Shown here in pieces: positions 3,077 to 46,990 of a stretch of DNA of 64,000 bases (position 1 is the stretch's first letter; every line of letters begins with the position of its first letter). This DNA is from Candidatus Aegiribacteria sp. (lineage in GTDB: Bacteria; Fermentibacterota; Fermentibacteria; Fermentibacterales; JCC-6), in the NCBI GenBank assembly GCA_030620995.1, contig JAUXIK010000004.1, positions 18,447-82,446 of the forward strand. The letters run 5' to 3'. The notes beneath the pieces are model-generated. The model had not been told where the DNA came from. It made no database searches and worked only from the letters and a program-made list of their open reading frames with translations. Both the position numbers and the translations under genes were made by a program.

Positions 3077-4396
3077 ATGAAATACATACCTGCGTCAAAA
3101 GTCAGGTCAACAATAGCAAACCATATGCTGGCAGATGGTTTTGATATGGTTCTTGACCTTGAGAAAAGCAAAGGATGCACTATACATGATTCTCAGGGTG
3201 ATAAGGACTATCTTGACCTCTTCAGCTTTTTTGCTTCAGCACCACTTGGCATGAACCATCCCGGGCTTTGCACCGAGGAATTCAGAAACCACATAGCCGA
3301 TGTTGCTATCAACAAGCCTTCCAACTCGGATTTCTACACTGAAGAACTTGCGGCTTTTGTGGAAGCATTTGCGGATACCGTTATTCCTGACAGCCACCCG
3401 CACCTTTTCTTCATTTCTGGCGGTGCTCTTGCCGTTGAAAACGCCATGAAAACGGCTTTTGACTGGAAGGTTCGCAAGAATCTCGAAGCAGGCAGAGGTG
3501 AGCTGGGCTCGAAGGTTATTCATTTCAGAAAAGCCTTCCATGGAAGAACAGGTTATACTCTTTCCATGACAAATACTGCTGATCCGAGAAAGTACATGTA
3601 CTTCCCTCTGTTCGACTGGCCGAGAGTAGATCCGCCGTCGATAAAATTCCCTCTTGAGGATAATCTTGACGAGGTCATCGAAGCCGAGAAAAAGACGCTT
3701 GAACAGATAGATGAAGCCATCAAGGAATACGGACACGATATCGCCTGTCTTGTCATGGAACCAATTCAGGGTGAGGGCGGAGATAATCATTTCAGACCCG
3801 AGTTCCTGCAGCAGCTCCGCGAACGGGCGGATAAGCATGAATTCATGTTCATTTTTGATGAGATTCAGACTGGAATGGGGCTTACAGGTGAATGGTGGGC
3901 ATGGCAGTCTCTGGGTGTAGAACCCGATATCTTCTGTTTCGGCAAGAAATCCCAGGTTTGCGGAATCGCATGCAACAAGCGTGTTGATGAAATAAAGGAC
4001 AATGTTTTTCACGAATCGAGCAGGATTAATTCCACCTGGGGCGGTAATCTCGTTGACATGGTCAGATGTACCCGTTTCCTCGAAATCATGGTCGAAGAAG
4101 ACACGCTGGAAAACGTCCGCAGCAGAAGCAAGACTCTCCTCGACGCTCTTCACAATCTTGAGAAGAAGTATCCCGGCAAATTCTCGAATGTTCGAGGCCG
4201 GGGACTCATGTGCGCCTTTGATCTTGAAGACGAGGAAACCAGAAACAGAATGATTGCTTCGATTATGAAGAATGGAGCCATCATTCTTCCCTGCGGTCAC
4301 ACCAGTATAAGATTCAGACCCCCTCTGAATATCACGGATGATGAGCTTCTTAAAGGGATCAGCATCATTGAAAAGGCTGCTGAGGTAGTTTTCTGA
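3077..4396 (+). CDS. lat: L-lysine 6-transaminase (class III aminotransferase)
   Basis: Blocks FDEIQTGMGLTGEWWAWQ, FGKKSQVCG, NSTWGGNLVDMVR, RGRGLMCAF and RFRPPL match Lat (lysine epsilon-aminotransferase) rather than other class III enzymes. Confidence 0.75.
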   Translation: MKYIPASKVRSTIANHMLADGFDMVLDLEKSKGCTIHDSQGDKDYLDLFSFFASAPLGMNHPGLCTEEFRNHIADVAINKPSNSDFYTEELAAFVEAFADTVIPDSHPHLFFISGGALAVENAMKTAFDWKVRKNLEAGRGELGSKVIHFRKAFHGRTGYTLSMTNTADPRKYMYFPLFDWPRVDPPSIKFPLEDNLDEVIEAEKKTLEQIDEAIKEYGHDIACLVMEPIQGEGGDNHFRPEFLQQLRERADKHEFMFIFDEIQTGMGLTGEWWAWQSLGVEPDIFCFGKKSQVCGIACNKRVDEIKDNVFHESSRINSTWGGNLVDMVRCTRFLEIMVEEDTLENVRSRSKTLLDALHNLEKKYPGKFSNVRGRGLMCAFDLEDEETRNRMIASIMKNGAIILPCGHTSIRFRPPLNITDDELLKGISIIEKAAEVVF

Positions 4397-4420
4397 GCAG
4401 GAATACCTTTTAGTAAGATA

Positions 4421-5278
4421 GTGAGAGACGGTATGGATATCATTCAGTTCACCAGAGAAGATATTGGTCGAATAGCAACACAGCTCGCCAGAACGGGGTG
4501 GGCCGAGGCCAACGCGGGAAATATCTCCGTTCTGCTTCCGGAAGGAGCAGCCGATACGATATGGGAAAATCAGGTTTTCTCCGATCCGCTCCCGATACCT
4601 ATTCCTGAACTGGCCGGAAGAACTTTCCTTGTGACCTGCGCCTGGAGCCGATTCAGAACACTTCAGCAAAAACTCGACACGGAAATAATCCCTGTCAGGG
4701 TTTCTTCTGATGGACTGAAAATAATCAGACTTAAGGGAAGCAAAGATCCCACAAGCGAGTTCAGTACCCATCTCCTTGTTCTGGCGGGAGCGGTAAGCCG
4801 CGGTTGGACAACAGCCTCTCTCGTTCATACACATTCGACGCATATGCTGGCGCTGTCCTCCAGTGACCTGCCGGGAGAGATGCTCGAAGATGCCGTCAAC
4901 AGATCTCATCCGGAGGTATCTCTTCTCCTCGGACGCGGTGTACGCTTTCTTGATTACATGACCCCCGGCACATGGGAGCTGGGGGTGGAAACAGCAAAGG
5001 TCTTTGAGAACAGTGACTGCGTTATCTGGAGAAAACACGGCATTCTTGGTCTTGGCAGAGATATTGATTCTGCCTGCGACGCGGTTGAAGTTGTAGAAAA
5101 GGCAGCTCGATTACTTCTCCTTGAGAAATCCGCTTTTGGTAAATTCGTAGGTCTGAAAAACCGCGAACTTGTGCCTAAAGACCCTTTGTCCCCAGAAGAC
5201 TCCGATGAAGATATCGATGATACGGATGGCGATTTGCCACCCGGTCTTCCGATTATAGACATTGGGGTCGGATCTTGA
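4421..5278 (+). CDS. Class II aldolase/adducin family protein with an acidic C-terminal tail
   Basis: The GWAEANAGNIS motif and overall fold resemble the fuculose/rhamnulose-1-P aldolase-like family. The last 5 codons and the stop lie inside the REPIN-like repeat. Confidence 0.65.
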   Translation: MRDGMDIIQFTREDIGRIATQLARTGWAEANAGNISVLLPEGAADTIWENQVFSDPLPIPIPELAGRTFLVTCAWSRFRTLQQKLDTEIIPVRVSSDGLKIIRLKGSKDPTSEFSTHLLVLAGAVSRGWTTASLVHTHSTHMLALSSSDLPGEMLEDAVNRSHPEVSLLLGRGVRFLDYMTPGTWELGVETAKVFENSDCVIWRKHGILGLGRDIDSACDAVEVVEKAARLLLLEKSAFGKFVGLKNRELVPKDPLSPEDSDEDIDDTDGDLPPGLPIIDIGVGS

Positions 5279-5390
5279 ATTTTGACATTTCTTAATTTAC
5301 TCAATGACATATACGCGAAAGAATGATTAACTATCAGATATGACACCTTTTCATCTGTCATGAAAATGTTAAAATTCAAGATCCGACCCC
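5264..5390. repeat. REPIN-like element: two inverted REP-like arms, 5264-5291 (GGGGTCGGATCTTGAATTTTGACATTTC) and 5362-5390 (its reverse complement with 1-2 mismatches), separated by a 70-bp spacer
   Basis: Inverted repeat read directly from the sequence. The arms are about 70% identical to the 29-bp inverted repeats that flank the RAYT gene at 12405 and 13357. Confidence 0.6.
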
Positions 5391-5563
5391 GTTACTCTTG
5401 ACAGGAAGTTTCAAATTCTCAATTATTCATCAGGGCATAATTCAAACAGGAGGTTCGATCTGATCATTTTTTCTTTTCTGTTGGCAAGTATGAGATGCAA
5501 ATTCAGTGGTTTTTCAAAAGATGGAAATCCTGACTGATCTGCATAAACTGAAAGGATAAATAA

Positions 5564-6115
5564 GTGAGAAGGTCGAAGTTCGCGGCAGCAGCCGTGATTA
5601 CATCAATCATTCTGTCAGTATCCGCATGCTGGAATCCATTCGCTCCCAAGCAGACTACTCCGATCAACCCATATCAGTACTACGCCCCTGTTGACAGCGC
5701 CTGGAAAGTACTGAAAAATTTGGAATATTCATATTCCAGCATGGATATTGACTGCTATATTGCATGCTTCAGAAGCGATTTCGAGTTTCATCTTCTTGAA
5801 ATTGACTGGGCTGATTACACCGGTAACGGTGTGATTGACGAGTACTGGGGCCTTGCCAAAGAAGAGGAATTTCACATTGCGATGTTCAATTCAGTATCGT
5901 CAATCGAACTGACTCTTTCGGGAGATTCGGAATTCCCCTGGAGTGGAGATCCGACAGGTATGGCCCTTGCCCTTCCGAGAACCTTCGATCTGAAAGTCTA
6001 TACTGACGGCGGGGTAAACGGATACTGTGCTTCCGGATCAGCTCTCTTCATCTGCAGAGAGGATGAATCAGGCGAGTGGTACATCTGGCAGTGGTGGGAT
6101 CAGTCAAGTACCTGA
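5564..6115 (+). CDS. Hypothetical lipoprotein
   Basis: Signal peptide with lipobox (ILSVSAC); no recognisable domain. Confidence 0.5.
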   Translation: MRRSKFAAAAVITSIILSVSACWNPFAPKQTTPINPYQYYAPVDSAWKVLKNLEYSYSSMDIDCYIACFRSDFEFHLLEIDWADYTGNGVIDEYWGLAKEEEFHIAMFNSVSSIELTLSGDSEFPWSGDPTGMALALPRTFDLKVYTDGGVNGYCASGSALFICREDESGEWYIWQWWDQSST

Positions 6116-6123
6116 ACCTGCCC

Positions 6124-7467
6124 CTAAGGCGTTAAACGCTTCGCGTCACGGGGAAACATCGTTGTAAGACGGATATTGTCCACATCGAGAATCCTGGCGG
6201 TCATTCTCTCAAGACCTATTGCAAGGCCGCCATGTGGCGGAAGGCCGTATTTGTGCGCCTGCAGATAGCTTTCAAAGTCATCCGGATCAAGCCCGAATTT
6301 CTTCATTTTTTCAACCTGCATTTCGTATTCGTGAATCCTTTGTCCTCCGGTTGTAACCTCGAGACCTCTGAACAGCAGATCGAAGCTCAGCGTTGTACCA
6401 GGATTTGCAGGATCATCCATCGTGTAGAACGGCCTCTTCTCCGTGGGGAAGTGAGTTACAAAAAGGAATTCGGAACCCCATTCCTCCTTTGAATACCTGC
6501 AGAGTATCTTCTCTTCCTCCGGCTCAAGGTCAGGTTCTCTCATGCAGTTCTTCCCGCTGATCTCAGAGGTAATCCTATGTGCTTCCTCCAGCGTAATGGA
6601 AGGTATTTGCTCACCTATTTCAGGCATCTTTGCGCCAAGCATTTCGAGTTCGTACGAAGTGTTCTTCCTCACCCTATAGAGGCAATGCCTCAGAACTGCT
6701 ACCTCAAGCGCCATCACGTCTTCAAATCCGTCAATGAAACCCATCTCAAAATCGAGAGAGGTGTATTCGTTAATATGTCTGGAAGTCTGGTGAGGTTCAG
6801 CTCGGAAAACAGGTCCTACTTCAAACACCCGCTCAAAGATACCTACTCCCATCTGTTTGTAGAACTGTGGGGATTGTGCAAGAAATGCAGGCCGGCCGAA
6901 GTAATCAACTTTAAAGATATTTGCTCCGCCCTCCGCTCCGGCTGAACAGATTTTCGGAGTGCGGATCTCGGTAAATCCCATATTTGAGAGGCTTTCCCTG
7001 AAGCCGAGCGCAAATGATTCCGCAATCTTGAGCCTGGCTCTTTCGCCGGGGTGCCGCAGACTCAGAGGGCGAAGATCAAGATTGGTATCAATGTGCAGAT
7101 CGAGAACTTTTTTGGTCGTATCGACCGGTGGCTGAACCGCAGGTGCTGAAATGATATCGATTGAATCCACATGAATTTCAACAGATGCGGGATGAATTGA
7201 ATTGTCCTTTATTCCGGCTTCCTTTACTGTACCCGTAACTTCAACCGACTGCTCGACATCCAGATTGTCAAGAATCTCTTCGTTTCCGTCATTCCCCATA
7301 ACGCATTGCAGTAATCCGTCATGGCGACGAAGCACGATAAACGCGCCCCAACCAAGGCAGCGGATTCGCTGAATTACGCCATGGAGCGTTACTTTCTCTC
7401 CCGCCATTCCCTCAAGCGTTTCTGCTGAAAGCAGGTTTGTCATTCCTTTATCACTTATACCGATCAT
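6124..7467 (-). CDS. aspS: Aspartate--tRNA ligase, archaeal/type-2 (about 440 aa; possibly non-discriminating)
   Basis: Class IIb motifs FRAEPHQTSRHINEYTSLDFEM and GGLAIGLERM; N-terminal OB-fold anticodon-binding domain; GGAGAGG RBS before the ATG at 7465-7467. Confidence 0.8.
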   Translation of the reverse strand: MIGISDKGMTNLLSAETLEGMAGEKVTLHGVIQRIRCLGWGAFIVLRRHDGLLQCVMGNDGNEEILDNLDVEQSVEVTGTVKEAGIKDNSIHPASVEIHVDSIDIISAPAVQPPVDTTKKVLDLHIDTNLDLRPLSLRHPGERARLKIAESFALGFRESLSNMGFTEIRTPKICSAGAEGGANIFKVDYFGRPAFLAQSPQFYKQMGVGIFERVFEVGPVFRAEPHQTSRHINEYTSLDFEMGFIDGFEDVMALEVAVLRHCLYRVRKNTSYELEMLGAKMPEIGEQIPSITLEEAHRITSEISGKNCMREPDLEPEEEKILCRYSKEEWGSEFLFVTHFPTEKRPFYTMDDPANPGTTLSFDLLFRGLEVTTGGQRIHEYEMQVEKMKKFGLDPDDFESYLQAHKYGLPPHGGLAIGLERMTARILDVDNIRLTTMFPRDAKRLTP

Positions 7468-7527
7468 GGAAAACCTCTCCGTTTTCTGGAAGCTCGTATT
7501 TCTCTTCAGAACAGCTAATATACATAT

Positions 7528-7923
7528 TCAGTCCTGTTGCGATGAATCACTCTCAAGGTTACTGTTCAGATTGGGATTAATTCCCCCGGATTTGAAAACA
7601 CGAATCAATCTGTTGGGAACTGAAATCAGGTGAGCCTGGAGTTCCCTGAATACATTTTCCGCGTTAATCAAAAGATCCTCTGCTTCCTCTCGACCCGGTT
7701 CATCCAGTTTGATTGTGCAGGAGAGTTTTCTCACATACCTGAATATATCCCTCAGTTTCGGCTGGTACTTTGTCCTCGAAAGCTCTCTAAGATTATGAAG
7801 TTCTTTCAGATCAGATTCAGCAAGCGCTTCTTCCTTCTGCAATCTGAAGCTCTCTCGTATGCGTTCCATCTGTTTGAGTAGAAGACTCAGCTCTTCGACT
7901 ACTCTTATATTTGCATTTTTCAT
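7528..7923 (-). CDS. Hypothetical coiled-coil protein
   Basis: ORF with a probable start at MKNANIRVVEEL; charged and helical; no recognisable domain. Confidence 0.3.
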   Translation of the reverse strand: MKNANIRVVEELSLLLKQMERIRESFRLQKEEALAESDLKELHNLRELSRTKYQPKLRDIFRYVRKLSCTIKLDEPGREEAEDLLINAENVFRELQAHLISVPNRLIRVFKSGGINPNLNSNLESDSSQQD

Positions 7924-7991
7924 ATTCTTGGCTTTCTTGATAGAGTGAATTAGAATTCTTGAAGTATATAAGATTAATCGATTGGAGAAGA

Positions 7992-9086
7992 ATGTCAGAC
8001 ACCTACCAAATATTAGCAATCAATCCCGGCTCCACGTCTACGAAAATATCTGTATTTGAGAGTGAAAAGGAAGTATGGTCTGCAAAAATATGTCATTCCA
8101 ATGATGAGCTGGCAGGATTTGACCATATTTTTGAGCAGTATGATTTCAGAAAAGATGTTATTGAAAAAGAGCTTGAGGAAGCTGGTTACGACATTCCATC
8201 CTTCGACGCGATTGTCGGTCGGGGTGGACTTCTCTACCCTGTTGAGGGAGGAACATACGAAGTAAACGAGAAGCTCCTTGAAGATCTCCGTGCAGGCGTT
8301 CAGGGGGAGCATGTTTCTAATCTGGGAGCTCCAATTGCAAATGAACTTGCTCATGAAGCCCACTGTCCCGCGTTTATAGTTGATCCGGTTGTTGTAGATG
8401 AAATGGAACCTCTTGCAAGGTTCTCGGGTCATCCTGATCTTCCCAGAAGATCGATCTTCCATGCCCTGAATCAGAAATCTGTTGCACGGAAAGCATCCTC
8501 AGATATTAAGAAATCATACGATAAGGTAAATCTCATAGTAGTTCACCTCGGTGGAGGAATCTCAGTGGGCGCTCATAAAGCCGGAAGGGTTATTGATGTC
8601 AATAACGCTCTTAATGGTGATGGCCCTTTCACACCTGAAAGATCCGGGGGTTTGCCGGTAGGTGATCTGACAGCACTCTGCTTCAGCGGTAAATACACTC
8701 TGCCGGAAGTCAAAAAAATGATCAAGGGCGCTGGCGGAATTGTAGCTTATCTTGGTACAAACGATATGAGGCTCGTCGAGGATAAAATCAGAGAAGGAGA
8801 CAGGAAGTACGCTCTGGTCTACGAAGCAATGGCATACCAGATAAGCAAGGAAATTGGAGCCATGGCAACTGTTCTTGAGGGCAATGTTGATGCAATAGTC
8901 CTTACCGGCGGAATCGCCTATGACAGGAATTTCGTGGAAATGATTCGCAGCCGCACGGGATTCATTGCGGAGATTCTGGTCTATCAGGGTGAGATGGAAA
9001 TGGAAGCTCTTGCGCTTGGAGGTTTGAGAGTGCTTCGGAAAGAAGAGAACGCAAAAATATACAACCCACGGAGGAAAGTTCTCTAA
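7992..9086 (+). CDS. buk: Butyrate kinase
   Basis: [14 protein letters not shown]-terminal ASKHA motif and full-length butyrate kinase similarity; the probable start is MSDTYQ. Confidence 0.85.
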
Positions 9087-10750
9087 TGAGTGATTCAGAA
9101 TTCGAAAAGAGAAAAAAACTCTGGGAAGAAAACATCCTTGATCCTGTCGTGAACAAATTCCCTGAAAGAAAAGAGACTTTCGTCACCGGATCGGGAGAGC
9201 CGGCGGAACGTGTTTACTTCCCTGAAAAACCGGATGAGGAATATCTGAGGAAACAGGGTTTCCCCGGACAGTACCCGTTCACAAGGGGAGTACAGCCCAC
9301 AATGTACAGGGGTCGTTTCTGGACGATGCGGCAATATGCGGGGTTCGGAACGGCGGAGGAATCAAATAAGCGGTATCGCTACCTTCTTGAACAGGGACAG
9401 ACCGGACTTTCAGTGGCGTTCGATCTACCGACTCAGATAGGATACGATTCAGACCATCCTCTCTGTGAGGGTGAGATAGGAAAAGTCGGCGTTGCTATCG
9501 ACAGCCTCTCTGATATGGAGATTCTGTTCAGTCAGATTCCCCTTGACAGTGTGTCAACCTCTATGACCATAAACGCTCCGGCTGCGGTTCTCCTTGCGAT
9601 GTACATTGTGGTTGCGGAGAAGCAGGGTATCCAGGCCAGAATGCTTCGCGGTACAATTCAAAATGACATTCTGAAAGAGTACATGGCCCGCGGAACCTAT
9701 ATTTTTCCCCCTGCCCAATCCATGAGACTCATAACTGACATTTTCTGCTTCTGCAGTGATAATGTACCGAAATGGAACACAATAAGTATTTCAGGATATC
9801 ACATTCGTGAAGCAGGGAGTACTGCTGCGCAGGAAGTTGCATTCACTCTTGCCGACGGTATTGCATACGTTGAAGCAGCAATTGAAGCAGGATTGAATGT
9901 CGATGATTTTGCGCCCAGGCTCAGTTTTTTCTTCAATGCGCACAATGATCTGCTTGAGGAGGTAGCTAAATTCAGAGCTGCGAGGAGATTATGGGGACAA
10001 ATCATGAGAGAGCGGTTCAAAGCAGAAAATCCAAAGAGCATGATGCTCCGTTTTCACACCCAGACAGCCGGCTCCTCTCTAACTGCTCAGCAGCCGGATA
10101 ACAACATCGTGAGAGTAGCAATTCAGACTCTTGCGGCAGTACTCGGCGGTACCCAGAGCCTCCACACGAACAGCAGGGATGAAGCCCTTTCTCTTCCAAC
10201 TGAACAGGCGGTTCGGATCGCTCTTCGAACCCAGCAGATTGTGGCTAACGAATCCGGGGTCGCGAATACAGTTGATCCGCTGGCGGGAAGTTATTTCGTT
10301 GAAAATCTTACAGATAAAATAGAAGAAGAGGCTCTGGAGTATATCAGAAAAATCGATTCAATGGGTGGTATGGTCAGCTCAATTGAGAGTGGATACCCTC
10401 AGAGAAAGATACAGGATTCAGCTTACAAATATCAGCGTGATATTGAAAATAAAGAAAGAGTAATTGTAGGGGTCAATAGTTATAGAATTCAGGAAGATCC
10501 ACCTGAAGGCCTCCTGAGGGTAGATCCTTCCGTTGCCGAATCGCAGCTTTCCAAGCTTGACAGCATAAGGAATAAGAGGGATAACAGTGCTGTTGAAACA
10601 AGTCTTGGAGCTCTTCAAAAAGCTGCAGACTCTACAGATAACCTGATGCCGTTCATACTTGATTCCGTACGGTGCTACGCTACTCTTGGTGAAATATGCA
10701 GGGTACTCAGGGATGAATTCGGGGAATACAGACCCAGCACGGTCCTGTAA
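9086..10750 (+). CDS. Acyl-CoA mutase large (catalytic) subunit, methylmalonyl/isobutyryl-CoA mutase family, without a B12-binding domain
   Basis: [61 protein letters not shown] matches the MCM/ICM catalytic barrel. The ATG overlaps the buk stop (TAATG), which points to translational coupling. Confidence 0.85.
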
Positions 10751-10805
10751 CCCAAAACCACTCATATGTGGTGTGGTCGAGTTTAGCAAGAAAGGAAAAT
10801 TCAAC

Positions 10806-12405
10806 TTGAAACTTTATAGAATCTGCTTAACAGCTTCAGTATTATTACTGCTTTTTCTCACTTCGTGTTTCGGCTCTTCGGTAGATAATTCAACCTGGAT
10901 TCTGATTGTCAGAGATGACTCCGTATCCGTTGGACAGCTTGGTGAATCATGGCTTGGAATGGATAGCCTTCAGAGGGAATCTTTCCTGTCAAAGGACAAT
11001 ACTATTGGTGAATTCATTGTCGCATACGGGAGAAGAGTCATCCTTGAGAAGGAGCTGGAAGCAGAGGGATATTTGACTGATCCTCTTTTTCTGTCTTACA
11101 GAAATTCATGGTTGATGGTCGAAACCGCCACGGCCGCAAAGAAATTGCTGGTTGAGCGGGAGGCTGCTGAAGTTACCGAATCCGATATACAGTTCTACGG
11201 TGAACACCTGGGCAGAAACGTGGTGTATACAGTCTATCCCGGTTCTGAAAATGAATTCAGTATCGGTCCGGTACATCTCCCGAATCTGCGACGTGAACTT
11301 GCCCTGCATCTTGATACATTATCATTCAATGAAATCGGAACTGACGGATCGGGTCTTCTAGTAAGGCTCGATACTCTGATGATGGTCGATTCTATCCTGA
11401 TCAAGAATGCTCTTTCTGATCCAGCCACAGTCAGTGATATGGCGATAAGAGATCTTTCTAATGCAAGATTCAATCGATGGGCACAGGATGTCAGTTACCG
11501 AATCTACACTGATTACTCGGTTACCTTTGATTCAGTTAAAGTTAAAGATTTCACTCAGCACCTTATCGGTAATAATCCTGATATGTCTGATAGCGTTGTT
11601 ATCGTTGAATCGGATTTCGGAACCTGGACAGTGAAATATCTTGAAGATGAGATTCTTTATCTTAGTACTCGTATTGATGTTCAGCCTGGATCTTCAGTCT
11701 GGATTGAAGATATGATTCAGGTCCTGCTGATGCAGTGCTATTTCTATGAGTTCATGCAGGAGGAATCTCCCGGAATACTTGACTCGCTGCGAGATGAATC
11801 CGAAACCTACCTGCTTAGTTTCGCCTCCGAAGAGTACTACAATGACATGATAGGCTCAATTGTAACCGTAACTGAATCAGACATCATATACGAATATGAG
11901 ACTCTTGAAGAACCTTTTATGATTGAGGAGAAGCGTGTACTTCAAGCAGCCTATATTCCAGTTGAGAGGACTGATGATTTCCGGCAGGCTGTATATGAAG
12001 AAAAACTGGAAGAATTTATCTCAGAGCTTGACGGTTTCGGATACCTGGCGGCAGATTCAACTCAAATCCAAATAACTCGACCTCTCAGATTTGGTGAAGT
12101 TCCAGGAGGCCACGGAGAAGAAGTTTTCTTACTCGATCCGTCCGATACGACAAGCTGGCTGGGGCCGGTCAGTGTATTCGCAGATGATGGGTCTGCTCTG
12201 CTCAGGCTTATAGAAGTAGTGCCTTCAAGGGTTGCGAGAATTGATGAAGTCAGGCGAAGTCTGAAGAACATGGCCATGACCAGACTTCAGGAGCAGGCCA
12301 CTGTTGAATTGATTCAGGAACTTGAAGAGAAGTACATTCTTATCATCAATGAAGAGATCCTTGACAAATTGCCTTCGGATCCGGGAATGTGGGCAACTCT
12401 ATAGG
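10806..12405 (+). CDS. Hypothetical lipoprotein (about 533 aa)
   Basis: The probable start is TTG at about 10806 after an AAAGGAAAA RBS, reading (M)KLYRICLTASVLLLLFLTSC with a lipobox. The longer start on the track overlaps the mutase gene. The stop TAG abuts the RAYT left inverted repeat. Confidence 0.5.
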
Positions 12406-13357
12406 GGTCAAACCTTGTATTTTAACATTATGGCTTATTAATATATTATTGCTAGCTATAATATTGTTCGTTCTTTATAATACGAGATACAGTTGCGAAG
12501 TGAAGTCCCAGGAAATCAGCTATCTCCTTCTGGCTGTATCCATACTCAATATATGCCTTGTATATAGCTTTGTCTCTTGCTTCCTTTACAGATCTAACAC
12601 CCAGGTCAAGCAGTTTCTCAATTGAAGGTCTGTCCGCATATCGTTGCCGTTTCAAAAACTCAGATTCATTTTTCGAATCAATCATTATGTCTCTCAGAGA
12701 CTCAACAAATTCGTCTTTACCGAGTATCAATCCACCCCTGGTATCTTCAAGCGGAGAATCACTTGATATTCCATCAAGTACAAACTTCCTGAAATTGCGT
12801 TTGGCCGTTTCCGAAGAACTTCCAAAATGTTCCTGTAGGAAATCGGTCTTAATGAATGGCATGCTTTCGTCAATTCCGACCATCTGCCTGTAACTGCTCC
12901 AAGAATATTCTTCTGGTTTCTCAACAATTCCTGCCCTTACAGGATTAAGTACAATGTACCTGCATAGTTCCAGGAAGTAGTTCTCGCGGTCAACAACAAT
13001 TGCATTATATCTTCCCTGAAAAACATGTCCGACAAGATCATGATGCTTATTGAAGTACTGTGCGTAGATACCGTTGAGGTTTTGCATTCCCATCGACAGA
13101 TTCGTCTCGGGAGTTTCAATAAAAAGATGATAGTGAGTATTCATGAGGCAGAGGTCATAACAATTCCATCCGAACCGATTCAGTATTTTCTGAAATATTT
13201 CAGAAAACTTATGTCTGTCCTCTTCATCAAGATAAATAGGCTGGCAATCGTTACCTCGGGCATAGATGTGGTAGAGCGCTCCTGGGAATTTAATACGTAA
13301 AGGTCTCATAATATATATATTATAATGTCATAATGTTAAAATACAAGGTTTGACCCC
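12405..13357. mobile_element. REP-RAYT unit: a tyrosine-transposase gene bracketed by perfect 29-bp inverted repeats, GGGGTCAAACCTTGTATTTTAACATTATG at 12405-12433 and its exact reverse complement at 13329-13357
   Basis: Inverted repeats read directly from the sequence; the ends abut the stop codons of the two convergent flanking genes. Confidence 0.75.
12452..13309 (-). CDS. rayT: REP-associated tyrosine transposase (IS200/IS605-like Y1 transposase) with a C-terminal helix-turn-helix extension
   Basis: HxH motif (NTHYHLFIET), a downstream conserved Tyr region (YSWSSY), and a C-terminal DnaA-domain-IV-like HTH (YSQKEIADFLGLHFATVSRI). Confidence 0.8.
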   Translation of the reverse strand: MRPLRIKFPGALYHIYARGNDCQPIYLDEEDRHKFSEIFQKILNRFGWNCYDLCLMNTHYHLFIETPETNLSMGMQNLNGIYAQYFNKHHDLVGHVFQGRYNAIVVDRENYFLELCRYIVLNPVRAGIVEKPEEYSWSSYRQMVGIDESMPFIKTDFLQEHFGSSSETAKRNFRKFVLDGISSDSPLEDTRGGLILGKDEFVESLRDIMIDSKNESEFLKRQRYADRPSIEKLLDLGVRSVKEARDKAIYKAYIEYGYSQKEIADFLGLHFATVSRIIKNEQYYS

Positions 13358-13986
13358 TACTGGGGGAAGAATTTGTAGAGATCAAGGTTTCTGATGGCAA
13401 AATTCAATGCCGGATACAGGATTTTTGAAAGGGCTCCAAACCAGAGGAGGCCGAATATGATAAAAATCCCGAAGCGCTCAAGCTTTCTATAACTGTACAG
13501 AGCCTGTCCATGAAGAAATCTCGCTACAATTCTGCTGCCATCAAGGGGTGGAATCGGCAGCAGGTTAAAAACCATAAGAACAATATTCATCAGAGCGGCA
13601 AAGGCCAGGCTATGCATGAGTATGGCCGGCATTATACCGGATGCGAGATGAAGCAGAACTGTTAGCACAAGGGCAATAGCAAGGTTGGTAGCAGGACCTG
13701 CGATAGCAACCCACATCATTCCCTGTTTTGGATCTCGAAAATGCCTGGGGTCAACCGGAACCGGTTTTGCCCATGCGAGCAATATCGGACTGTTGGTTAT
13801 CAACAACATCGCCGGAAGAAGAATGGTTCCAATGGGGTCTATGTGGGGAATTGGATTAAATGTAAGTCTGCCCATTCTATATGCTGTGGGATCGCCAAGC
13901 TTCAGGGCAACATATCCATGAGCTATTTCGTGGCATACGACACTGAAGAAGACAAGGATAATTACGAATGGAGTCTCAATACCCAT
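13357..13986 (-). CDS. Site-2 protease family (M50) membrane metalloprotease
   Basis: HEIAHG (HExxH) inside a TM helix, a downstream LDG motif, and a polytopic membrane profile. Confidence 0.8.
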   Translation of the reverse strand: MGIETPFVIILVFFSVVCHEIAHGYVALKLGDPTAYRMGRLTFNPIPHIDPIGTILLPAMLLITNSPILLAWAKPVPVDPRHFRDPKQGMMWVAIAGPATNLAIALVLTVLLHLASGIMPAILMHSLAFAALMNIVLMVFNLLPIPPLDGSRIVARFLHGQALYSYRKLERFGIFIIFGLLWFGALSKILYPALNFAIRNLDLYKFFPQ

Positions 13987-14675
13987 TACCTTCTCCTGCC
14001 GGCAAGAAGCAGCCAGATCATCTGTCCCAGAGAAGCAAGCGCAGCGGCAACATAGGTCATGGCGGCGGCACCAAGGACTTTCCTGACACCCTGCAGTTCA
14101 CCCGCAGTCATACTGCCGCTTTTCTCAAGGTAAACGACTGCTCTTCTGCTTGCATCGAACTCAACGGGAAGAGTAACCAGCTGAAACAGCAGCGCTGCAC
14201 CGTACAGAGCAGCGCCAACGTAATAAAGTGCGGTCATATGAAAGAACAGACCGCCGATTATCAATGGAAACAGCATCTGGGATCCAAGATTGGCGACAGG
14301 AACCAGCTTCTGTCTGATCTGGAACGGACCGTAGCCCATCGCGTCCTGAACAGCGTGACCGGCTTCATGCGCGGCAACTCCAACGGAAGCAATTGATGTC
14401 CCCTCGTAAACATTCTGAGAGAGTCTAAGGGTACTGCTGCGGGAATCGTAGTGATCCGTAAGATGCCCTGATATTTCTTCAATACCAATATTGGCCAGGC
14501 CGTAGTTATCAAGTATCTGTCTCGCGACGAAAGCCCCGGAAAGCCCTCTGCCGGTGGCAACCTGACTGAACCTTCTGTATGTGCCGTTTACCTTTGACCT
14601 GGCTATCATGCCTATGATCATAGCGGCAATGATGATCAGAAATCCTGCATTCATGTCTACGAATCCTAGATACAT
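13986..14675 (-). CDS. Membrane zinc metallopeptidase (Zn_peptidase_2 / YpfJ-like)
   Basis: HEAGHAVQD motif and flanking TM segments. Confidence 0.7.
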   Translation of the reverse strand: MYLGFVDMNAGFLIIIAAMIIGMIARSKVNGTYRRFSQVATGRGLSGAFVARQILDNYGLANIGIEEISGHLTDHYDSRSSTLRLSQNVYEGTSIASVGVAAHEAGHAVQDAMGYGPFQIRQKLVPVANLGSQMLFPLIIGGLFFHMTALYYVGAALYGAALLFQLVTLPVEFDASRRAVVYLEKSGSMTAGELQGVRKVLGAAAMTYVAAALASLGQMIWLLLAGRRR

Positions 14676-14778: not shown

Positions 14779-14839
14779 GGGGACACGCAGCAGAGCGTCA
14801 TGTTCTTTGGGGACACGCACCAGAGCCTGCATGTCCCGC
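14779..14839. repeat. REP family 2 doublet (GGGGACACGCAGCAGAGCGTCATGTTCTTT + GGGGACACGCACCAGAGCCTGCATGTCCCGC)
   Basis: Near-identical doublets at 34865-34924 and, inverted, at 46931-46990. Each unit is an imperfect palindrome GGGGACAyGCA...TGCrTGTCCCC. Confidence 0.6.
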
Positions 14840-34864: not shown

Positions 34865-34924
34865 GGGGACACGCACCAGAGCGTCGTGCTTTTTGGGGAC
34901 ACGCACCAGAGCGTGCATGTCCCC
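34865..34924. repeat. REP family 2 doublet (GGGGACACGCACCAGAGCGTCGTGCTTTTT + GGGGACACGCACCAGAGCGTGCATGTCCCC), 12 bp upstream of the uvrA start
   Basis: Same family as 14779 and 46931. Confidence 0.6.
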
Positions 34925-46930: not shown

Positions 46931-46990
46931 GGGGACATGCAGGCTCTGCTGCGTGTCCCCAAAAAACCTGACGCTCTGCTGCATGTCCCT
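46931..46990. repeat. REP family 2 doublet in inverted orientation (GGGGACATGCAGGCTCTGCTGCGTGTCCCC + AAAAAACCTGACGCTCTGCTGCATGTCCC)
   Basis: Reverse complement of the doublets at 14779 and 34865. Confidence 0.6.

Follow-up and report, generated by a model that had tools for sequence, protein, structure and literature searches.

A terminal-repeat doublet, probably a non-autonomous miniature of TIRYT-type transposons, provides the stop codon of an aldolase gene in Candidatus Aegiribacteria

Results

An inverted-repeat doublet at the 3′ end of an aldolase gene

The stretch of Candidatus Aegiribacteria DNA analysed here (64 kb, hereafter the window) carries a class II aldolase ORF of 285 aa at 4421-5278 on the plus strand. 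The product matches Pfam Aldolase_II at 4e-25 and is rhamnulose-1-phosphate-aldolase-like, this being the closest NCBIfam model, with a score below cutoff. The 3′ end of the ORF overlaps a miniature non-coding doublet of 127 bp (5264-5390, assigned to neither strand) made of two outward-facing terminal repeats and a spacer. The left arm (GGGGTCGGATCTTGAATTTTGACATTT; 5264-5290, plus strand) includes the last four sense codons of the aldolase (GVGS) and its TGA stop at 5276-5278. Its inverted partner, the right arm, lies at 5364-5390 and reads GGGGTCGGATCTTGAATTTTAACATTT on the minus strand, while the 73-nt spacer (5291-5363) contains a short internal inverted repeat, AATGACA / TGTCATG. The GGGG ends of both arms point outward.

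An inverted-repeat search delimited the arms at 27 nt each, 96% complementary with a single G/A mismatch. The initial annotation had recognised a hairpin-capable inverted repeat at this position, which is present; its arm length of 28-29 bp and spacer of 70 bp were slightly off. An inverted match of 27 nt arose in 0 of 100 shuffles, so a chance origin is not expected. As single-stranded DNA, a 139-nt stretch containing the doublet folds at -29.8 kcal/mol (z = -7.9), and as RNA the doublet has a predicted fold of -50 kcal/mol (z = -8.4). Single arms, taken alone, do not exceed shuffled sequence in folding (0 to -1 kcal/mol) and show no self-complementarity.

The aldolase ORF ends ATT GGG GTC GGA TCT TGA (I-G-V-G-S-stop), with ATT immediately outside the left arm and the GVGS codons and TGA inside it, as the initial annotation had read it. 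The resulting tail, ...PIID-IGVGS*, is unique among the homologs inspected: the nine closest all finish in ...PP(I/V)ID* and IGVGS occurs in none. The five added residues sit on a poorly conserved acidic/proline tail, and their effect on the aldolase is therefore probably negligible. An exact-sequence look-up of the window's aldolase and transposase proteins found no identical record.

Neither a further copy of the doublet nor any other match to the core shared with the transposase arms (see below), with up to 3 mismatches allowed, was found in the 64 kb. A metagenome scan for arms of the doublet's GGAT type returned 7 loci, none of them in the window's genome. An Rfam scan of 4000-14500 (E <= 1) gave nothing relevant, and a literature search found no paper on the arm sequence. 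We also considered an integron attC site, judged by eye, and rejected it: the right junction, GTTACTC, does not fit GTTRRRY and is native flank that also occurs in relatives lacking the doublet.

Beyond the doublet, a promoter-like site (TTGACA-17-AATTAT; 5398-5426, plus strand) begins 8 nt past the right arm, is conserved in all relatives and precedes a 183-aa gene at 5564-6115. This gene encodes a putative lipoprotein of no Pfam family and has a long leader. The intergenic region 5391-5563 is almost invariant in seven relatives that are 7-16% diverged in coding DNA.

A TIRYT-type transposase element 7.0 kb away

A transposase element occupies 12402-13359, 7.0 kb from the doublet. The transposase gene (12452-13309, minus strand) encodes a RAYT-like Y1 (HUH) protein of the TIRYT type, 285 aa long with a C-terminal helix-turn-helix (HTH), and is enclosed by 45-nt terminal inverted repeats (TIRs) that are 91% complementary. 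The left repeat (TAGGGGTCAAACCTTGTATTTTAACATT...; 12402-12446, plus strand) contains the TAG that stops the ORF at 10659-12404; the right repeat (13315-13359, minus strand) contains the TAG that stops a peptidase M50 ORF (13357-13986, minus strand). These two convergent ORFs thus each end in a TAG composed of TA and the first G of the repeat, and both junctions are identical in L134 (GCA_023131525.1), a genome that shares 97% identity with the window across 10 kb and likewise carries this transposase locus. The right repeat immediately precedes the transposase ATG and contains -35/-10-like hexamers; a promoter role of the arms is only suggestive, as promoter-like sites are not enriched in them (5 versus 3.4 +/- 2 in shuffles).

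The transposase matches Pfam Y1_Tnp at 2e-12, and its best NCBIfam match is REP_Tyr_transpos at 65.7 bits, below the cutoff of 80. HTH_Crp_2, HTH_3 and HTH_23 match residues 233-281 with E = 3e-5 to 3e-4, just below their gathering scores, and homologs have precomputed HTH_23 / HTH_38 domains. In an alignment of 12 homologs, H61 (in an HYH motif) and Y118 (in RYIxxNP) are invariant. A profile of these 12 homologs matches E. coli TnpA_REP (4ER8) with E = 0.0017, aligning HYH over HMH, the HUH motif of that enzyme, and RYIxxNP over DYIYINP, whose tyrosine we take to be the catalytic tyrosine of the E. coli enzyme. This match was reached by the profile and not by the single sequence, for which phmmer against the PDB returned just a designed repeat protein matching the HTH. 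The family numbers 2948 proteins at E <= 1e-30, mostly of 280-300 aa and named 'transposase' or 'REP element-mobilizing transposase RayT' in their sources; many are on contigs of ~1 kb, as expected with repeated ends.

The corresponding element in L070 (CSMAG_2080) has a different left end. Comparison of L070 1100-1240 with window 12300-12430 shows a shared right flank and an unrelated left flank; homology begins exactly at GGGTCAAACC, and the left arm is degenerate. This points to rearrangement or gene gain/loss at the element end. In L070 the TAA stop of the M50 gene directly abuts the arm.

A terminus shared across phyla

Alignment of the four arms, two from the doublet and two from the transposase element, shows that all share a 26-nt core, GGGGTC-N4-CTTG-N-ATTTT-N-ACATT, as the initial annotation had noted. 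The two kinds of arm differ at 4-5 of the 26 core positions, including the variable tetranucleotide (GGAT in the doublet, AAAC around the transposase). The relation claimed earlier therefore stands, and the identity, given there as about 70%, was measured as 21-22/26 core positions or ~75% over 28 nt.

We surveyed the core as a degenerate 26-mer, with one genome per species. It was found at at least 116 loci, in Nitrospirota, Desulfobacterota, Actinomycetota, Chlorobi, Verrucomicrobiota, Elusimicrobiota, Patescibacteria, Aegiribacteria and others; the sister genome CSMAG_331 alone has at least 4 loci. Among the matches listed, the commonest form is GGGGTCAGGTCTTGAATTTTGACATT, and conservation sets in abruptly at the first G and extends for 26-27 nt, with random flanks apart from a weak A/T preference at -3 to -1. 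The same matches comprise 40 dimers and 75 singles. GGGG points outward in 52 of the 73 neighbouring arm pairs listed, which include 40 short doublets (spacers -1 to 170 nt) and 13 pairs 600-1030 nt apart. Eleven of these 13 long pairs enclose a homolog of the window's transposase, and by tblastn 13 of the listed loci contain such a homolog (25-86% identity, nine of them 42-53%), most of which abut the motif. The variable tetranucleotide is equal in both arms of 39 of the 40 short doublets listed; arms around one transposase gene can differ, as with GGAT and GTAT in L128. No direct repeat that would represent a target-site duplication was found in the flanks of 37 of the listed doublets.

A Nitrospirae metagenome-assembled genome contains at least 7 copies of a 102-bp doublet, in both orientations and with a conserved 48-nt spacer. 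The surroundings of several copies are unrelated, and a few copies have one flank in common; this doublet is thus largely a dispersed miniature element. The view that the window's doublet is a non-coding, hairpin-capable derivative of the repeat family at the transposase ends is upheld; in other genomes such doublets are dispersed and multi-copy.

As a check independent of the core, three homologs were chosen by protein alone, and all carry GGGGTCA(G/A)GTCTTG termini. In P0110 (95% identity to the window's transposase) the arms are identical. P0170 (48% identity) has GGGGTCAGGTCTTGCTTTTTGTC on both sides and a solo copy, and Undibacterium P0133 (48% identity) has GGGGTCAAGTCTTGACATGAC upstream and at least 5 variant arms within 20 kb. 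Since the same termini recur in homologs chosen in this way, the outer 14 nt appear to be the most conserved part of the terminus.

Arms of this kind also occur in other arrangements. In sister Aegiribacteria (L076 5799-6668, L075 3870-4740), what two AAAC-type arms enclose is not a transposase gene but one for a DUF6144 protein of 231 aa. On one side of this pair lies a transaldolase-like gene that stops within one arm (...GSNLVS*/F*); on the other side, a transketolase N-subunit gene opens with codons (MSNVKIQGLTP) that form the reverse complement of the other arm. Candidatus Aegiribacteria CSMAG_515 (L007, L014, L048, L098) has at least 4 copies of a longer element, in which ~110 nt of conserved interior (tcaataactgttggtcggtattactctgcctga...) come after a GTAT-type arm. 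The L007 and L048 copies resemble each other in their outer flanks, L098 shares these in part, and L014 has different ones. In L100 the arm is tandemly duplicated.

History of the aldolase locus

Aminotransferase-aldolase synteny is common to seven relatives, which are 7-16% diverged, and none of these genomes has a transposase at the aldolase site. In L055 (~10% diverged), the aldolase ends in ...PIID-TAA. A stretch of 29 nt that contains GGGGACATGCACGA and ends in ATT separates this stop from the same doublet, which occupies the same site with identical junctions and ~94% identity and so follows both the native stop and the 5′ half of a REP-like hairpin (see below); relative to the window, differences fall at 1/54 arm and 7/73 spacer positions. 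L119 and L120 have no doublet. There, TAA is followed by an intact 30-nt hairpin, GGGGACATGCGCGCTCTGCTCCGTGTCCCC, and then TTTACG; the stem is 11 bp. L131 and L132 have, 4 nt after TAA, a different doublet of 83 bp with arms TAGGGTCAGGTCTTGCATTCAAGCATTTAT. Remnants are all that is left downstream in L133 (ATTGGGGTCGGGTCTC) and in L117 and L118 (ATTGGG); L133 and L117 retain 6-15 nt of the left arm. The 83-bp doublet (L131 980-1062; the contig end in L132) has arms that are 29/29 complementary, and reflects either a separate insertion at this spot or a concerted change of both arms.

The L055 arrangement changes the explanation of the aldolase tail. The initial annotation had held that the insertion rewrote the C-terminus, which is not so: L055 has the same doublet together with the native ...PIID-TAA 32 nt upstream. 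Comparison with orthologs does bear out an altered tail in the window, and it argues against insertion as the direct cause. The IGVGS tail most likely arose through a later deletion beside an old insertion, since the window lacks the 32 nt, stop included, that L055 keeps. This deletion is seen in one assembly only.

The L119 hairpin belongs to a second, truly palindromic repeat family, GGGGACAYGC-N10-GCRTGTCCCC, which we refer to as REP-like and which folds at -12.8 kcal/mol (z = -5.8). The window holds full copies at 14809-14838, 34895-34924 and 46931-46960 and partial copies near 14780-14808 and 46973-46990; in relatives, copies are found at L070 3587-3704 and at about 3845-3877 in L119. Tandem number varies, with three in L070 versus one and a half in the window. 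The end of this family, GGGGACAC, fits the GGGGWSAS motif (see Discussion) too, and the family is linked to no transposase.

From these states we infer an order of events by parsimony, the aldolase tree of the seven relatives being star-like, with no clean map onto the presence or absence of the doublet. The 30-nt REP-like hairpin would originally have followed the aldolase gene. The doublet would then have landed in or next to the hairpin loop, with loss of the hairpin's 3′ half, giving the L055 state. In the window's lineage, a later deletion would have removed TAA together with what was left of the hairpin, 32 nt of L055-type sequence, and so brought the aldolase ORF into frame with the TGA of the arm. 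The doublet thus appears to be old, predating the split from a ~10% diverged genome, and for that reason gives no sign of recent movement.

Stop codons within arms

Among the loci of the matches listed, 30 of 187 arms contain the end of an open frame of 100 codons or more, against 3.4% of random positions in the same loci. The comparison is crude, as the frames are unverified as genes and the arms are intergenic. The stop is a TAG formed from TA and the first G in 8 cases, including both genes that flank the window's transposase element, and in the sample each of the 8 arms with a preceding TA marks where a long open frame ends. It is a TGA at +12 in 6 cases, the aldolase included, and a TGA or TAA at +19 in 14. 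The terminus has TGA or TAA in two of its three inward frames, as well as -35-like hexamers. The comparison with random positions suggests that the capture of the aldolase tail is one of many.

Discussion

RAYT-like genes with long TIRs instead of REPs have been described and named TIRYT/TIRtrons (Di Nocera et al. 2013, PMC3733652); many of these TIRs share GGGGWSAS, and they also occur single, dimeric or grouped (PMC3733652). Subclass 2.1 transposases (Y1 plus C-terminal HTH) were later equated with TIRYT, and no repeats were found near subclass 2.1 genes (Quentin et al. 2018, PMC6006769). The window's element has the features described for TIRYTs: a RAYT-homologous Y1 HUH transposase with its tyrosine and a C-terminal HTH, long TIRs with a GGGG start, and low to moderate copy number, with repeats as singles or dimers, here a dimer, away from the gene. 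As for GGGGWSAS itself, the family consensus GGGGTCAG fits, whereas the transposase arms (GGGGTCAA) and doublet arms (GGGGTCGG) are each one position off. On this basis the doublet is, as judged from sequence, a TIR dimer of the TIRYT/TIRtron class. What differs from the published cases is the host phylum, which is new (Candidatus Aegiribacteria / Fermentibacterota), and the extent of the conserved terminus, for which the TIRYT papers report the 8-nt motif only and which here reaches 26 nt across phyla.

The initial annotation had called the doublet REPIN-like. The analogy of an inverted doublet forming a hairpin is sound; the family assignment is not, the single arms being no palindromes and no GTAG-tagged REP. 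As in REPIN-RAYT systems (Bertels & Rainey 2011, PMC3116915), a non-autonomous hairpin doublet accompanies a Y1 gene flanked by such repeats and keeps a fixed site through vertical inheritance in related genomes. REPIN units, in contrast, are palindromic with a GTAG tag and reach hundreds of copies (PMC3116915), unlike the non-folding arms, GGGG ends and one doublet in 64 kb observed here. Bacterial MITEs (RUP, NEMIS/Correia, ERIC) are similar in being small and non-coding, with TIRs that match an autonomous element in the same genome, and in lying at a gene end, where they are probably co-transcribed and can give codons to the adjoining ORF. Classical MITEs, however, derive from insertion sequences with DDE transposases and have target-site duplications, none of which was seen at the doublets here; this lack fits what is expected of a Y1/HUH enzyme.

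We consider it likely that the doublet is a non-autonomous miniature (TIR dimer) of TIRYT/TIRtron transposons and that the present aldolase tail came about by a later deletion. It is quite improbable, by comparison, that a full-length transposase element after the aldolase lost its interior in place and never moved as a miniature. Deletions do occur at this site, as the L133 and L117 remnants and the 32 nt lost in the window attest, the window has a single doublet copy, and the subterminal ATGACA of the right arm resembles the promoter-proximal arm of the transposase. Yet no related genome among the seven has a transposase there, doublets with conserved spacers of their own are dispersed elsewhere, several in unrelated flanks, and alignment of the spacer with the transposase element's interior shows no significant similarity (local alignment score 19; shuffled mean 19.7). 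Derivation by direct deletion from the window's own transposase copy is likewise unsupported, the spacer alignment giving no signal. A classical REPIN, with two inverted REP palindromes served by a single-copy RAYT, is very unlikely: an inverted pair with a short spacer and a long hairpin would suit it, as would a RAYT-like gene with related repeats on either side, but the arms have no hairpin of their own, the protein falls under the NCBIfam RAYT cutoff and has an extra HTH domain, and long TIRs with GGGG ends are the very distinction drawn for TIRYTs (PMC3733652). We give almost no credence to an inverted repeat that arose by chance, or to a regulatory palindrome specific to this locus and without relation to the transposase; the placement between a stop codon and a promoter would suit one and nothing further does, against the shuffling result and the recurrence of the same 26-nt core at transposase ends across phyla.

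Compatible with the miniature-element reading, though unlikely, is a present role of the hairpin as a functional 3′ structure (stabiliser or terminator) of the aldolase transcript, replacing the REP-like hairpin. A doublet-free relative has the 11-bp hairpin and TTTA at the same place, the doublet RNA folds strongly, and the comparison with L055 shows stronger conservation of the arms than of the spacer, a contrast that rests on small numbers. Against such a role, no T-run follows the stem, no terminator-like site was detected, Rfam gave no match, and L133 and L117 manage without either hairpin.

Y1 enzymes work on DNA single strands and leave no target duplication, as is established for IS608 and TnpA_REP. 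If IS608 TnpA and E. coli TnpA_REP are a guide, the TIRYT-derived doublet would, when single-stranded, fold into a long hairpin, which the Y1 enzyme would recognise, cut at its GGGG/CCCC base and move without target-site duplication; at the 3′ end of the aldolase mRNA, the doublet hairpin would now take the place of the lost REP-like one. Mobilisation in trans by the transposase 7 kb away, as the initial annotation proposed, is plausible. Three points speak against recent activity: the doublet has no second copy in the window, differs in its arms from those of the transposase at 4-5/26 positions, and is older than the ~10% divergence.

A more general proposal, which we offer tentatively and regard as rather unlikely, is that the TIRYT clade (~3000 homologs, E <= 1e-30) has one terminus across phyla, with an outer part GGGGTCAGGTCTTG and 26 nt in many lineages, which is suited to gene ends and recurrently donates stops where insertions at or into stop codons and REP-like hairpins are tolerated. 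If this is true, the aldolase tail would be an instance of a general property of the terminus and not an accident.

Neither the doublet nor the captured aldolase tail overturns current understanding. Candidatus Aegiribacteria, a candidate phylum, joins the hosts of the little-studied TIRYT transposons, and the locus offers a stepwise route to the capture of a stop codon, by insertion beside a REP-like hairpin and subsequent deletion. The terminus is conserved over 14-26 nt across phyla, against proteins that are ~45% identical, and provides a concrete DNA substrate for a first biochemical test of a TIRYT.
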